A stretch of DNA of 64,000 nt from Syntrophorhabdaceae bacterium (GTDB lineage Bacteria > Desulfobacterota > Syntrophorhabdia > Syntrophorhabdales > Syntrophorhabdaceae). The stretch covers positions 416,001 through 480,000 of the forward strand of contig CAXXUO010000002.1 of the NCBI GenBank assembly GCA_963666485.2. The letters are read 5' to 3'. How positions within the stretch are numbered: position 1 is the stretch's first letter; every line of letters starts with the position of its first letter. Made by a program: the position numbers. Below are positions 35,301-41,300 of this stretch, one piece after another.

Positions 35301-38300
35301 GGTACCCTGATCTGACCCCGGAGATAACCACAACTACCCCTATGGTAATATAAATGAAGACTAAGATTGGTGCCGGAGGCGGGGCTTGAACCCGCATGAC
35401 CGCGAGGGTCACCGGATTTTGAGTCCGGCGCGTCTGCCAGTTCCACCACTCCGGCGCGCGTAATATTAAAGGCTTTCTTGCCCTGCTTTGTCAACCCTTT
35501 CGTGCCGTGAAAATGATTAATTTACGATGCCGCGGCACCAATAAAAAAGGGCCCCGAAAGGGGCCCCTTCTTTCCGTAAGGAATTGATCTTAGAAGAAAT
35601 ACCAGGCTGCGAACCTGTAAACGTCGCCGGTGCCTACGCGGTCATCGGTCACGCTAGGTGTAGATGCCAGGTTGTAGCCGGTGACCAGATGGGTCCACTG
35701 GAGCCCGAACCTGATCGCCTGGTTGGCGTCCCACAGCAGGTTGACTGAGTAGGTCTGGTTCATGTTGATGTTGTTGGGGAAAGCCATACGCTGATATTCG
35801 CTGGCGTTGTATTTCAGGTAGCCGTAAGCAAGGTTTGCCCAGAGCTTATCGGTGAACCAGAAGGACAACTGGGTGAAGAGGCCCCAGGCGGTCGGTGCCG
35901 CGGCGTCTCCATTCTCCATTCTCCAGTAGGAGCCTACGCTCGGGGTCGCTACCGGTGTCGGGACGTTGTTCCAGTTGTTGCCTGCGAAGTTCTGGCCGTA
36001 GAAGAAGTTACCGTTGAGAAGCATTGCGAACTGCTTGTTGCCCTGTTTTTCAGGGATGATCGGTACGCTGTACCTGAAAGCAAGCATCCAGGCGTTGACG
36101 GTATCATCGTAATACCCACCCGCACTCGATACGCCCGGGGCGGCATAGGTGGGAAGTCCGGCCACAGTCTGACCCGTGATCTTCTTTTCCTTGCCAAAGT
36201 AACCGCCAAAACCAAACTTCAGGTTGTTCGGGCCGATCTTGCCGCAGCGGTCGGTCCAGTACGCGAGCTCGGCCATGAAGCCCGGCCAGTTGCTCCTGGC
36301 ATAATCATCGGCCTGACGCGTAGGATTGGCACCTGACCACTCTGTGGCAGACTGGATACCGATCATGGCGTTAAACTCTTTCGTGAAGAAATACCTGAAG
36401 GCCATCTGAGGCATCCTGAGGCCTTTGAGGTAGGTCGACTCATCGTTGAAGCCGATCTCTGCGATATAGTAGGGCATACCCCACTGCTGCCAGTTCTGGC
36501 CCATCATCAATTCCGCTGAATCCCAGTTCAACGACATGAATGCATGCCTTAACTGGAAGCCGCCGTAGGAGTTTCCGGTCGATACGCCGCGGAAGTCACC
36601 TTCGACAAATGCGCTTGTCTTTGCTCCCCAGAGATCCGGGCCCTTGATGAGGAAATTAAGGCGGGTCTCACCAGCGGTCTGGAAGGTATTGCTGTAATCG
36701 TCAGCAAGCCAGCTGGTTCCTGAGGACGGTCTGCTGGCATAGTACATGTCAGCATTTGCATTCTGGGTGGTATAGCCCAGATCGTACTTCACAAAGCCGC
36801 CAAATGTTACATCATATCTGCTTGATACGCTGCCCGCATTGCTCAATGCCGGGATGACAAGGAACACAGCAAGCAAAACCAATACTAACTTCTTCATTCT
36901 TGCCTCCTTAGTAATATTTTTTGCATCTTTGAACATACTTGTCGTCACTCCACCTCCCTCTATTAACTTTTTTTAATTTTATATCAACCGGCCGGAAAAC
37001 TGTCAAGGGAAAAATTAATTATTTTTAATAAAAAATCCCCTTTATTTCTTCCGGCCCGACGCTCCAAGGACGACCTTCCCTTATCTTCCCGGGCCCACGC
37101 GTCACGAGATAACTGGTCATAGCGTCCCTATGTCTAATATAACACGTCCCGGCGGCGGTTTAATCGTCCGTTTGTGCTATACTTAATTGGATCAACTTTA
37201 AGGAGGGACTATGGAGCCGCAAGGACCCGGGCTGCAGAATCTTTGTCAGAAGCATGGAAGGACCATTAACAGGTGAAATACTGGCAATGATAGCTTTCAG
37301 GGTCCTCGATCATGATGCCGATATCCGGATAGAGGTCTCCGGGACATCCCGGCAGGAACTCTTTGAAAATGCCGCGAAGGGTATGTTTTCGCTTCTGACA
37401 GACCCCTCTTTCGTCCAGCCCGTGATCGAGAAGGATATCATCGTCAAAGGCAACGGCGAACTGCTCGTCAATTTCCTCAATGAACTTCTTTATGTCTGGG
37501 ACGTCGAGCGGTTCATACCGGCCGAGGTCTCCGTGGATTTCACACCGGATGGAGCACATGCCGTTTTGAAAGGGGAAAACTTCGACGAGCAAAGGCATGC
37601 CATTCAGCTGGAGATGAAAGCTGTGACGTACCACAATTTTATGATGACCGAACAAAATGACCTCTACCGGGCAACCTTCGTTATCGATGTGTGATCCCGG
37701 TGATCATGGTGCGATTATGAGCGAGATCGAAAAGCTTGAAAAGATTGACGACAACCGCTTTCTGATACGTAAGAGCGGGGCAATGCGCGTCGACGGGGTA
37801 ATTTATCTCGATGAAGGACTCCTTCAGGGCCTTGGCAACGACGAGAGCTTAAAGCAGGTGGAAAACGTCGCTACGCTTCCGGGCATTGTGAGGGCCTCGC
37901 TTGCCATGCCCGATATTCACTGGGGATACGGTTTTCCCATAGGGGGGGTCGCCGCCTTCGATAAGGACACCGGTATCATATCGCCCGGCGGCGTCGGCTA
38001 CGATATCAATTGAGGTGTGCGCCTTTTGCGCTCCGTGTTGAGCGTACAGGACGTCCGAAACAAGGTCCAGGATATCGTGGAAGGCTTTTTCCGCAACATT
38101 CCGAGCGGACTCGGGTCACGGCGGAAGGATGTCCGGCTTACATACAGCGAATTAAAAGCGGTGCTGAAAAAAGGTGCGCGCTGGGCGGTCTCCAACGGGT
38201 TCGGCACATCGTCGGATATCGAGCACATCGAGGACGGAGGATGTCTCGAAGATGCTGATCCTGACATGGTCTCCGATAAAGCGTACGACCGGGGCAAGGA

Positions 38301-41300
38301 CCAGCTGGGAACGGTCGGAAGCGGCAACCATTTTGTGGAGGTCGGGTACGTTGCGGAGATATTCGATCCCGGGATCGCATCGGACTTCGGGCTTTTTCCG
38401 GGGCAGGCCACGGTAATGATACACACGGGCTCGCGGGGGCTCGGATACCAGGTTTGCGATGAATCGATCCGGCACATGCTTTCTGCAGCCGCAAAATACG
38501 GGATCGACCTTGTTGACAGGCAATTATGCTGTGCGCCGCTTGGATCGCCGGAAGGCAGCCGTTATTTCTCGGCAATGGCGGCAGCCGCCAATTATGCCTT
38601 TGCGAATCGCCAGATGATAACGCATTGGGTACGCGAGACGTTCGAACAGGTATTTCGGGCGAGCGAGGCATCGCTCGGGCTGTCCCTTGTCTACGATGTG
38701 TGCCACAACATTGCCAAAAAAGAGAAGCACGTCGTTGAAGGTAAAGAAGTCAACCTCTGCGTGCATCGAAAGGGGGCCACACGCGCCTTCCCTCCCGGCC
38801 ACAGGCTTGTGCCGGAAAAGTACCGCAAAGCCGGGCAGCCCGTCCTCGTCCCCGGGGATATGGGGCGCGCCTCGTACGTTCTTGCCGGGACGCACCAGGC
38901 AATGGAGGAAACGTTCGGCAGCACGTGTCACGGGGCAGGAAGGGTAATGAGCAGGAACCAGGCGTTAAAGGCAGCTCGTGGACGATCGATCGCCGGAGAG
39001 ATGGAAAAGCGCGGCGTATACGTGCGGTCAGCCAGCAAAGCGACCCTCGCCGAGGAGATGCCAGAGGCATACAAGGATGTTTCGAAGGTGGTTGAGGTCG
39101 TTCATCGTGCCGGCATATCAAAACTCGTGGCGAAGATAGTGCCTCTTGGGGCCATAAAGGGCTAAAAGATGGTTCAAGGTAAAAGGTTCAAGGTTCAAGG
39201 TAAAAGACCCCCCCCTATAAGACGGTTAATAATCAGGTTCCTGAAGTCCGCTTTTTCTTTGAACTTTGAACATTGAACATTGAACTCTTTTCTATAATAA
39301 TGGTAATAAATTGAGCATGGCTGAAGAAAACGTAAAGGCAAAGGGGACGTCCTTAAGAAAGTAAGTAAAGGCAAAGGGGACGTCCTTAAGAAAGTAAGTA
39401 ACTTAAAATCACCCGGTCCAGAGATAAGAACGACAGGGCGGTCCGTTTAGTTGTTTGAGGAGTTTCTTACTTTCTTAAGGACGTCCCCCAAATTTTTCCG
39501 GAAGGTTTGACAATGAATGAGTGGCAGTTGATATCCCTCCGCGATTGGAGTGTCTTGCACTGAAACAATCTTAACCGGAAGACTGTGACTCTTCATTTAT
39601 GAGTCTGTAGTTGTCAACGCTTTACCTGACCAGTGCAAATCAGGTTTCTGAAGTCCGCTTTTTCTTTGAACTTTGAACATTGAACATTGAACTCTTTTCT
39701 ATAATAATGGTAATAAATTGAGCATGGCTGAAGAAAACGGGCTTGTTATCGTCTTCACGGGGTCCGGGAAGGGAAAGACGAGTGCGGCGCTCGGGATTGC
39801 GCTGCGGGCGTCGGGACGCGGACTGAGGACGGTCATCGTTCAATTTCTGAAAAGTGCCGAAATGTCCGGGGAACAGCTCATCGGGAATCCGTTAATAGAG
39901 GTCCACGCCTTTGGGACGGGGTTCTTTAAACGGGGCGACGATCCGCAACCCCACATTGATACTGCAGCCCAAGGATGGAAGGTTGCCGAAGATATGATAC
40001 TGTCCGGTGGCCCGGACATTCTTGTCCTCGATGAGGTATCACATGCCGTCAATTTCGGTTTTTTACCTCTGGAGGCTGTATCGGGAGCAATACGGAGGAA
40101 AAAACCCGGTCTTCACGTCATCTTAACCGGAAGGGACATGCCGCAGGACCTTGTTGAAATTGCCGGCATCGCCACCGAAATGAAGGAAATTCGCCACATT
40201 TACACGTCAGGCCAACCGGCGGTAAAAGGGATAGACTATTAGATCGTAAGTCGTAAAGAGTTAAAGCAAAATCCAATTTATTTATGGATTTTTTTACACC
40301 TTACGGCTGACGACTTACGACTTGCGTTTCCCTCACCTTCTCGCCCAATAAACACTCGCAAAAATAATCACCCCGCCAATAAGCTGATAGATATTGAGGG
40401 TTTCCCCTGAAACGAAATACGCCGTTGCGGCGGCAGTGGCCGGGACGCAATACTGGTATATCATTGTCCTCGTCAGGCCAATTCTTGCCACGGCACGATA
40501 CCAGAGGAAGAAGGCAATAACGATCGAAAACACTATAGAAAAGACGATCACCATCCACCCTGTCAGCGAAAGGCGTGCCATCTCGCCCGGGTCAAAAAAG
40601 GCCGGGACAAAGAAGCCCAGGAGGATCGCCCCGGCAAGCATGCTGTATGCCGTTACCTTCAACGGAGAATGCTTTTCGAGGAGCGGTTTGGATAATATCG
40701 TATAGAGCGCCCAGGATAAGCTGGCGAAAAGGGCAAGCACAATTCCCCGGGTATCCGAAGCAATGAGGACCCTGAAATCGCCTCGTGTCATGAGAATGAA
40801 TACCCCGAAAAAACCGGCAATAATGGCCATCAGCCTCTTCTTCGCAAATCTCTCGTATCCCAGGAGGGCGCTCAGGAAGCCGCCGTAGATCGGCGACATA
40901 TTTATGAGGATGCCGACATTGACGGCCGATGTATATTTTAAGGCATACGTGAAAAGCAGCTGATACACGGTTATCCCGATGGCCCCGAGCAGTGCGAGCC
41001 GCCACACGTCCCGGTACGCCACCTTTACATCTTCAATAAAAAGGAGTAAAAGAAATAAAAGAACACTTCCCGTAATGAACCGGACCAGTATGACGTTGAC
41101 CGGTGAAAGACTGACGAGAAGGTACTTCACCGCCACGATGTTAGCGCCCCAGATGAGCGAGACGAAAAGAAGTGAGAAATCGGACAGGCGATCGCGTTCC
41201 ACGCACTATTCTTAAATGCCGCATTCCGCTTTGTCAATTTTTATTGGCGGAAGATTAAATCTTAATGACGGAGAGACCGATGGACCCCAGAGAAAAAATG

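Follow-up and report, generated by a model that had tools for sequence, protein, structure and literature searches.

The rtcB gene of a Syntrophorhabdaceae bacterium appears to encode a natural selenoprotein. RtcB is the universal ligase that joins 3'-phosphate and 5'-OH RNA ends in tRNA splicing and RNA repair; in the gene described here, an in-frame TGA occupies the codon of the cysteine bridging both catalytic metals. Judging from the sequence comparisons reported below, we consider it about 90% probable that the gene gives rise to a full-length RtcB in which selenocysteine (Sec) replaces this cysteine, the UGA being decoded via a downstream hairpin that acts as a SECIS element. The window, i.e. 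the whole stretch of DNA that was analysed, comprises 64,000 nucleotides of the contig CAXXUO010000002.1, and all coordinates refer to it. Two neighbouring genes are relevant:

37254..37694, + strand: gene for archease, which acts as the activator of its partner RtcB (Pfam PF01951, E 2.4e-35, matched over profile positions 1-136 of 136); 22 nt separate its end from the start of rtcB
37717..39165, + strand: rtcB, 482 codons plus a TAA stop, with one internal TGA (Pfam PF01139, PDB 1uc2)

An ORF scan of the window revealed two open reading frames (37657..38013 and 38017..39165), which lie in the same frame with a single TGA between them. When this TGA is read as U, positions 37717-39165 are translated into 482 residues, and U99 is the sole recoded codon. 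The product matches the Pfam family RtcB (PF01139; E 2.1e-176, 587.8 bits with a cut-off of 27) over the whole profile (positions 1-426 of 426), with the match running through the TGA, and it has full-length PDB matches to 1uc2 (E 5.2e-179) and 2epg (E 3e-176). The initial annotation had described a single 482-codon RtcB frame with an in-frame TGA at codon 99, which is confirmed by the reading frames, the translation and the unbroken alignments to Pfam and 1uc2. It had also called the gene the only RtcB gene of the genome and placed an archease gene directly upstream; indeed, the genome yielded one RtcB match, and the PF01951 gene lies on the same strand with a gap of 22 nt to rtcB. By family, the product is predicted to be a 3'-phosphate/5'-OH RNA ligase that joins RNA in a GTP- and metal-dependent manner.

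The unbroken alignment to 1uc2 places codon 99 on Cys98 of the Pyrococcus horikoshii RtcB, within the common motif GYDIN-C-GVRL, and thereby agrees with the earlier assignment of the TGA to the metal-binding catalytic cysteine. The active-site codons are listed below; the ligand and nucleophile roles are those given in PMC9745838.

38002..38004, + strand: Asp96 codon, aligned with Asp95, a metal ligand in P. horikoshii RtcB (alignment and motif position; PMC9745838)
38011..38013, + strand: TGA, codon 99, probably read as selenocysteine; aligned with the metal-bridging Cys98 (TGA in 65 versus TGC/TGT in 64 of 129 relatives' loci)
38326..38331, + strand: Asn204-His205 codons, of which His205 corresponds to His203, a metal ligand in P. 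horikoshii RtcB (alignment, SGNHF motif at residue 202; PMC9745838)
38422..38424, + strand: His236 codon, corresponding to the metal ligand His234 of P. horikoshii RtcB (motif HTGSRG at residue 236, alignment; PMC9745838)
38704..38706, + strand: His330 codon, corresponding to the metal ligand His329 of P. horikoshii RtcB (motif CHNIA at residue 329, alignment; PMC9745838)
38929..38931, + strand: His405 codon, corresponding to the guanylylated His404 of P. horikoshii RtcB (motif STCHGAGR at residue 402, alignment; PMC9745838)

According to the alignment, the RtcB ligand set (D96, H205, H236, H330) and the nucleophile H405 are all present, and the position of Cys98 is occupied by UGA. In P. horikoshii RtcB, Cys98 ligates both M1 and M2, and the alanine mutant is described as deficient in every ligation step (PMC9745838). 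Selenocysteine at codon 99, being the chalcogen analogue of cysteine, is a predicted metal ligand.

The same codon carries either TGA or a cysteine codon in the relatives. From relatives, 131 RtcB loci were read and the site could be located in 129 of them, with TGA in 65 and TGC or TGT in 64 cases, which upholds the Sec/Cys pair at one codon that had been proposed. A scan of the order Syntrophorhabdales detected RtcB in 91 of 96 genomes, the same count as that given previously. From this order 91 loci were read, while seven partial, degenerate or duplicate rows were left out; 90 of them showed the site (TGA in 39, TGC in 44 and TGT in seven), which and could not be located in one cut locus (L087). 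The TGA lies exactly at the codon-99 position in each of the order's 39 TGA-type loci as well as in all 26 that were fetched from other parts of the phylum sample. Public genomes, scanned with a pattern, yielded at least 119 further TGA-type cases, labelled as Thermodesulfobacteriota, Nitrospirota, Acidobacteriota, Binatia and others. The spread within the order noticed before was understated: TGA-type genes reach several phyla well beyond it. All carriers that were found are uncultured genomes. In a tree of the aligned sequences, well-supported branches force at least ten switches between Sec and Cys. Since no other stop codon can be reached from TGC or TGT by a single substitution, the exclusive use of TGA is not evidence in itself.

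The coding sequence is intact on both sides of the TGA. Of the 65 TGA loci, 57 have a frame that stays open over at least 99 codons upstream of the TGA and 379-389 codons downstream of it; seven of the remaining eight run into a contig end, and in the last one (L091) an additional stop 22 codons downstream of the TGA breaks the frame. For 12 TGA-type genes close to that of the window, the median dN/dS was 0.089 upstream of the TGA (codons -95..-1) and 0.065 downstream of it (codons +13..+375), with dS above 1. Both halves of rtcB are under strong purifying selection. The broken relative L091 is what might be expected of a pseudogene, or of a sequencing or assembly error, but such an origin of the TGA has a negligible probability: the identical TGA is present in 65 loci and in at least 119 stretches from separate public assemblies, exactly one stop lies in the frame of all 80 public-genome stretches listed, dN/dS is below 0.1 on either side, and a contig of 96% identity, obtained from another sample, retains the TGA.

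The TGA is followed by a hairpin, which was obtained both by folding the single sequence and with RNAalifold:

38028..38045, + strand: SECIS-like hairpin with the 5' arm GCGCTC (38028-38033), the loop CGTGTT (38034-38039) and the 3' arm GAGCGT (38040-38045)

The hairpin GCGCUC-CGUGUU-GAGCGU begins 14 nt past the UGA, and a possible seventh pair (U-A at 38027/38046) would extend its stem. Among the distinct TGA-type sequences of the order, 37 were folded with this hairpin and 36 of them keep all six stem pairs, the exception (L030) having one C-C mismatch; the 38th distinct sequence (L057) forms a different hairpin. The RNAalifold consensus is a 6-bp stem with one broken cell of 222. Four of the six stem pairs are invariant within the order, and the basal pair covaries (GC in 17, GU in 15 and AU in five sequences). 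As regards the hairpin reported in the initial annotation, its position and conservation stand, whereas the closing pair in the window is G-U and not G-C.

The synonymous sites reveal the constraint on this region. At codons +5..+10 the third-codon-position entropy is 0.00-0.57 bits in the 37 distinct TGA-type sequences of the order, compared with 1.5-2.0 bits in the flanking codons and 1.53-1.96 bits at the same codons in 26 Cys-type sequences of the order. Selection at the RNA level thus keeps a hairpin at SECIS distance in the TGA-type genes only. In other lineages this place is taken by other hairpins, for instance GAAGACC/GGUCUUC versus GAGAACC/GGUUCUC and a long Nitrospirota-type stem, and across the lineages at least four hairpin forms occur at this codon. 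Only three Cys-type loci (L008, L012 and L016) have all six pairs; all of them nest within Sec clades in the tree, and their hairpins can be read as fossils. Overall, a hairpin was counted in 62 of 65 TGA-type and three of 64 Cys-type loci, a comparison that is biased towards the TGA-type because the pairing registers were read off the TGA sequences themselves. Generic measures of stability separate the two types weakly: an uninterrupted stem of at least 6 bp was present in 80 of 129 TGA-type and 21 of 63 Cys-type sequences, the common form being bulged, and the median fold z-score was -0.98 versus -0.48 (p 0.014 in a Mann-Whitney test, the sequences being related). Therefore, the case for the hairpin rests on synonymous-site conservation and covariation. 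A search of positions 37950-38150 against Rfam, SECIS families included, gave no match up to E 10.

Could the gene instead be split, with translation stopping at the UGA and restarting just after it, so that an N-terminal piece of 98 residues and another of about 380 assemble without the bridging residue? Possible restart codons do exist: the window has GTG at codon +2 and TTG at codon +5, the TGA and the following GG form GAGG as a possible ribosome-binding site, and an in-frame ATG, GTG or TTG lies within codons +1..+5 in 52 of the 63 distinct TGA-type sequences. Moreover, gene callers predict products of 362-379 residues, which account for 17 of the best 120 database matches. However, 11 of the 63 sequences have no start codon in that interval, and the hairpin would cover the restart region. 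The pieces would also lack the residue whose alanine mutant, according to PMC9745838, loses all ligation steps. As a split gene leaves the frozen synonymous sites and the covarying hairpin of the TGA-type genes unexplained, we regard it as highly improbable.

The genome possesses the complete equipment for decoding UGA as selenocysteine, as the initial annotation had stated: tRNA-Sec (73.7 bits, anticodon TCA), selA, selB and selD were all found. The selD gene has its own Sec TGA, which is followed by a hairpin with the loop CGGGU. SelB scored over the cut-off in 59 of 64 TGA-type genomes, and selA was found in four of the other five; neither gene was seen in one TGA-type genome that is 97% complete (G072). 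As selB is nearly universal (85 of 96 genomes of the order and 372 of 401 of the phylum sample), its presence does not discriminate the TGA-type genomes. The UGA might also be read through as Cys, Trp or another residue, either by a near-cognate tRNA or with Cys on tRNA-Sec, and either always or when selenium is scarce. This would yield a full-length enzyme too and account for the selection on both halves, and the computed evidence does not identify the inserted residue. Yet hairpins that are conserved and lineage-specific and stand at SECIS distance point, together with the complete Sec machinery, to SelB-dependent decoding, and if cysteine was wanted, TGC is one step away and has been taken repeatedly, given the at least ten switches on the tree. 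Readthrough with a residue other than selenocysteine is very unlikely. Decoding of the UGA as selenocysteine fits every sequence-level test that was run, i.e. the Sec/Cys pair, the intact frames, dN/dS, the hairpin and the machinery.

The following mechanism can be proposed. During translation of the mRNA, the hairpin 14 nt past the UGA would serve as a bacterial SECIS, to which SelB carrying Sec-tRNA(Sec) would bind and thereby bring selenocysteine to the UGA. With selenocysteine inserted, the ribosome would continue past this codon and produce the 482-residue enzyme. The archease encoded by the upstream gene would activate Sec-RtcB, as it does for the Cys-type RtcB.

Cys-type RtcB suffers from oxidative or copper-driven inactivation, which animals counter with PYROXD1. 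Two studies describe the bridging cysteine as the oxidation-sensitive weak point of the enzyme (PMC9745838, PMC12263435), and in one RtcB crystal Cys98 has been seen oxidised to a sulfonic acid (PMC9745838). The most likely reason for the use of selenocysteine is that a selenolate ligand would resist irreversible oxidation at this site. A broader scenario can be put forward only tentatively. Sec-RtcB may be old and widespread, with a selenolate bridging the two metals of an RNA ligase as a new kind of Sec-metal site, which might resist oxidative or copper-driven inactivation and possibly shift the metal preference. Selenocysteine may have been ancestral in a multi-phylum clade and repeatedly lost to cysteine, leaving fossil SECIS elements behind, while rebuilding of the SECIS would have given rise to at least four forms. 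Taken as one joint reading, this scenario is rather less probable than not.

The human RTCB Cys122, which is the equivalent of the metal-bridging Cys98, has been termed 'invariant' (PMC12263435). A natural Sec-RtcB would overturn this invariance and provide a ready-made case in which Sec and Cys can be compared as metal-bridging residues of a non-redox enzyme. Moreover, the selenoproteome, which consists mostly of redox proteins in current catalogues, would gain a widespread family occurring under several phylum labels. There are also consequences for genome annotation: gene callers split or truncate Sec-rtcB, the fragments among the best 120 database proteins start just past the TGA, and genomes carrying such a gene appear to have a broken RtcB or none. 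The 2026 catalogue of prokaryotic selenoproteins does not list RtcB among its 119 families, as had been noted and as its whole Table 1 shows. RtcB as a natural selenoprotein was also not found in the literature, catalogue tables and NCBIfam models that were searched, although the supplements of a bioRxiv preprint and of large metagenome screens might list it; only an engineered U98 RtcB is in print in the literature searched.

This engineered P. horikoshii RtcB U98 carries selenocysteine at the identical residue (PMC4150793). It is artificial and was made with a UAG codon and EF-Tu in the absence of a SECIS (PMC4150793), whereas the genes of the window type are natural and conserved. The same source reports that the engineered enzyme cleaved itself at a nearby peptide bond, which counts against the Sec reading (PMC4150793). 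The Cys-type enzymes, such as P. horikoshii PH1602 (PDB 1uc2/4dwq), Thermus thermophilus TTHA1785 (2epg) and human RTCB, share with the RtcB of the window the full-length family match and the equivalents of Asp95, His203, His234, His329 and His404, and an archease gene adjoins; the window gene differs from them in having UGA at the position of the metal-bridging Cys98.

The prototype of the bacterial selenoprotein genes is E. coli fdhF, whose SECIS lies inside the reading frame and is read by SelB. With such SelB-read genes, rtcB shares the in-frame UGA at a catalytic cysteine, the hairpin within the coding sequence shortly downstream, the presence of tRNA-Sec, selA, selB and selD, and a G/U-rich apical loop (CGUGUU in rtcB and CGGGU in the genome's own selD). 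It differs from them in its protein family, which is new to this mechanism, in its short stem of 6-7 bp, in the existence of at least four hairpin forms and in having no Rfam match. Formate dehydrogenase (Mo/W) and [NiFeSe] hydrogenase have selenocysteine in place of a cysteine that ligates the catalytic metal, and a review links selenocysteine in such enzymes to protection from irreversible over-oxidation (PMC13188914). In RtcB, by contrast, the ligand bridges not a redox centre but the two-metal site of a GTP-dependent nucleotidyl transferase, which in P. horikoshii RtcB is described as containing Mn (PMC9745838).

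A single in-frame TGA (38011-38013) parts two open reading frames of the plus strand that lie in the same frame. The features of this region are:

35368-35455, minus strand, tRNA-Leu (anticodon CAA), about 1.8 kb upstream of the archease-rtcB pair
ending 22 nt upstream of rtcB, plus strand, archease gene (PF01951, E = 2.4e-35)
37657..38013, plus strand, open reading frame upstream of the TGA
38017..39165, plus strand, open reading frame downstream of the TGA
38028-38045, plus strand, hairpin GCGCUC-CGUGUU-GAGCGU, 14 nt past the UGA (6-7 bp when folded)

When the TGA is read as U, the stretch from the ATG at 37717 to the TAA at 39163-39165 encodes 482 residues, with U99 as the sole recoded codon. 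The product covers positions 1-426 of the 426 of the Pfam RtcB profile (587.8 bits, E = 2.1e-176) and is matched end to end by the RtcB structures 1uc2 (E = 5.2e-179) and 2epg (3.4e-176) as well as by human RTCB (about 1e-130). Codon 99 is aligned on Cys98 of Pyrococcus horikoshii RtcB, gapless across the TGA, in the shared motif GYDIN-C-GVRL. Moreover, D96, H205, H236, H330 and H405 are the aligned counterparts of the other metal ligands and of the guanylylated histidine. No second RtcB match was found in the genome (99% complete, 10 contigs). The initial annotation had described one 482-codon frame with a TGA at codon 99 as the sole RtcB gene of the genome, and both points are confirmed. A 102-nt direct repeat follows shortly after rtcB (39231-39332 and 39638-39739; 99% identical, 407 nt apart). 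The repeat pair encloses a perfect 33-nt tandem duplication (39332-39397) and a 28-nt inverted repeat (39376-39403/39461-39488; 96% complementary), and it may represent a small intergenic element that is mobile or was duplicated.

According to PMC9745838, Cys98 bridges two manganese ions, ligating M1 together with His234 and His329 and M2 together with Asp95 and His203. Its replacement by alanine abolished all ligation steps, and in one crystal it was oxidised to the sulfonic acid (PMC9745838). Its human counterpart, Cys122, is described in PMC12263435 as the invariant, oxidation-sensitive active-site cysteine that is protected by PYROXD1.

The same codon was inspected in relatives. RtcB was found in 91 of the 96 genomes of the order Syntrophorhabdales, a repeat scan thus reproducing the earlier count. 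In the resulting set of 91 loci, which omits seven partial, degenerate or duplicate rows (G048:C37, G063:C5, G077:C28, G008:C525, G065:C17, G064:C118, G061:C147), the corresponding codon could be identified in 90 (39 TGA, 44 TGC, 7 TGT); the remaining locus, L087, is cut. In a sample of the phylum, RtcB was present in 356 of 401 genomes, and 30 of the 150 matches listed had exactly one TGA, 26 of them outside the order. All 26 carry the TGA at the homologous codon, and the 13 of 14 Cys-type controls in which the site was located have TGC or TGT. Taken together, the site was located in 129 of 131 loci, 65 with TGA and 64 with Cys. A public collection (one genome per species) was also scanned with a pattern made up of the ten conserved codons that precede the site and of TGA-GG, which returned at least 119 stretches, nearly all from metagenome-assembled genomes. 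Among the 80 stretches listed, each with exactly one stop in frame, the titles name about 39 deltaproteobacterial/Thermodesulfobacteriota, 18 Nitrospirota/Thermodesulfovibrionia-type and 15 Acidobacteriota-type records, two Binatia, two without a group label and one each of Eisenbacteria, Gemmatimonadales, Polyangiaceae and Pseudomonadota. Within the order, genome G002 has two full-length TGA-type rtcB genes, L048 (G002:C68) and L052 (G002:C29), with the hairpin loops CGUGCU and CGGGGU.

The reading frame is kept on both sides of the TGA. In 57 of the 65 TGA loci it runs uninterrupted through at least 99 codons ahead of the TGA and 379-389 codons behind it, up to the true stop, while contig ends cut seven loci and one has a further stop. 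The latter, L091 (G027:C8), has an in-frame stop 22 codons past the Sec codon, and its extended frame holds 13 stops; the locus is either broken or carries a frameshift from the assembly. For 12 TGA-type genes near the one studied here, the median dN/dS was 0.089 over codons -95 to -1 (58 pairs) and 0.065 over codons +13 to +375 (51 pairs), with a median dS above 1. Therefore, both parts are translated and have been selected over a long divergence. The TGA is also retained in a 9.9-kb contig of another sample and another study (96% identity over 747 nt), where an A at 38028 turns the closing G-U pair into A-U. Sequencing error or a pseudogene was excluded by the TGA-locus, frame and dN/dS counts.

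Synonymous-site conservation is the clearest evidence for an RNA signal after the UGA:

Third-position entropy (bits) after the TGA or the matching Cys codon
TGA-type, order (37 distinct), codons +1 to +4: 1.63-1.90
TGA-type, order, codons +5 to +10: 0.57, 0.00, 0.18, 0.18, 0.00, 0.18
TGA-type, order, codons +11 to +14: 1.49-1.97
Cys-type, order (26 distinct), codons +5 to +10: 1.53-1.96
TGA-type, outside the order (26), codons +5 to +11: 0.24, 0.00, 1.07, 1.15, 0.24, 0.62, 0.39

The peptide R-S-V-L-S is fixed in the Sec forms of the order and varies freely in the Cys forms. The RNAalifold consensus of the 37 distinct TGA-type order sequences is exactly the stem 38028-38045. Its basal pair occurs as G-C (17), G-U (15) or A-U (5), and one of 222 pair cells is broken (in L030); the remaining pairs are almost invariant and therefore carry little information. 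All six pairs are formed in 62 of 65 TGA versus 3 of 64 Cys loci, a comparison biased by taking the three registers from TGA sequences. Generic stability tests separated the two types only weakly, and no Rfam family matched the hairpin region. Outside the order, TGA-type genes have the same entropy dip over a hairpin of their own. Many Thermodesulfobacteriota and Acidobacteriota have a bulged hairpin, UGCGCUCA-GGUC-UGAG(C)CGCA, and Binatia-, Eisenbacteria- and Gemmatimonadales-labelled records have GAAGACC/GGUCUUC; in its variants GAGAACC/GGUUCUC and AGGACC/GGUCCU, two of the pairs are altered on both strands of the stem. Nitrospirota-labelled records have a long GGAGCAACCUC...GAGGUUGCUCC stem. 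Other lineages solve the same problem with different hairpins. L057 (G008:C570), the sole order locus without the local hairpin, bears the long Nitrospirota-type stem. This TGA-type fragment lies on a contig of 1.7 kb, in a genome that has 9% contamination and also a Cys-type RtcB; contamination or gene transfer is the probable explanation.

A split gene, in which translation stops at the UGA and restarts, could draw on the start codons that lie nearby in 52 of 63 TGA-type sequences, but its products would lack an essential metal ligand and the selection at the RNA level would be left without a reason; we regard it as very improbable. Reading of the UGA as a residue other than Sec is possible in principle.

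The genome has the machinery for Sec insertion. The tRNA-Sec, with the anticodon TCA (ARAGORN), exceeds the gathering score of 47 at 73.7 bits. There are two copies of selA, a selB (402 bits) and a second selB-like gene; the selA and selB-like loci are G000:C3:20129-24445, C4:168611-170485 and C1:229833-231191. One selA adjoins a selB-like gene whose match is restricted to positions 1-383 and 544-580 of the model, and a second SelB could read a different SECIS class. Furthermore, selD (G000:C2:512556-513467, minus strand) is itself a selenoprotein gene, with its own TGA at the usual place in the N-terminal glycine-rich loop, followed by a hairpin whose loop, CGGGU, is much like that of rtcB. 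Among 64 TGA-type genomes, selB was above the cut-off in 59; selA was found in four of the other five, one of these also with a selB truncated at a contig end, and neither gene was found in G072. As almost all genomes of these groups have selB, its presence fits the Sec reading but has no discriminating power.

From 118 whole sequences (57 Sec, 61 Cys), a FastTree tree was built without the Sec/Cys site, the hairpin-encoded columns, L090 and L091 (extra stops) and nine rows cut by contig ends. It needs 14 Sec/Cys changes, at least 10 of which are forced by well-supported branches. Three Cys-type genes (L008, L012 and L016; TGC) still form the whole hairpin and are nested in Sec clades, which suggests recent Sec-to-Cys replacements and candidate fossil SECIS elements, the direction in this unrooted tree being inferred.

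The in-frame UGA is a confirmed observation, and its reading as selenocysteine, proposed in the initial annotation, is supported by the Sec/Cys pair, the selection on both sides, the hairpin and the machinery (probability about 0.9). When the ribosome arrives at the UGA, SelB with Sec-tRNA(Sec) would bind the hairpin, and Sec would be inserted. In the full-length enzyme, the selenolate would be the bridging ligand of the two metals, and the archease would activate guanylylation as for Cys-type enzymes.

In the literature searched as full text, judged from listings and abstracts, only the engineered enzyme appears and no natural Sec-RtcB. RtcB is not among the 119 families that make up Table 1 in the 2026 review PMC13188914, as had been claimed; the supplements of the metagenome screens cited there lie outside this scope. 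Term searches did not find it in BSepDB (main text and one supplement), deep-Sep (main text and four supplements) or the main texts of a 2022 review and a 2022 preprint on eight new families. None of the four NCBIfam matches is a selenoprotein-type RtcB model. The nearest 120 database proteins are 103 Cys forms and 17 fragments of 362-379 residues that start just after the TGA, none named as a selenoprotein. On this reading, Sec-RtcB forms a new family of selenoproteins, decoded by the usual bacterial recoding mechanism. Three features make it stand out: the residue had been considered invariant, Sec would bridge the metals of an enzyme that has no redox function, and the family, though mis-annotated, is widespread.

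As a caution, the engineered P. horikoshii U98 enzyme itself cleaved a nearby peptide bond (PMC4150793). The benefit of Sec is likely that an oxidation-prone ligand would resist irreversible oxidation; the analogy is to [NiFeSe] hydrogenase and formate dehydrogenase as described in PMC13188914.
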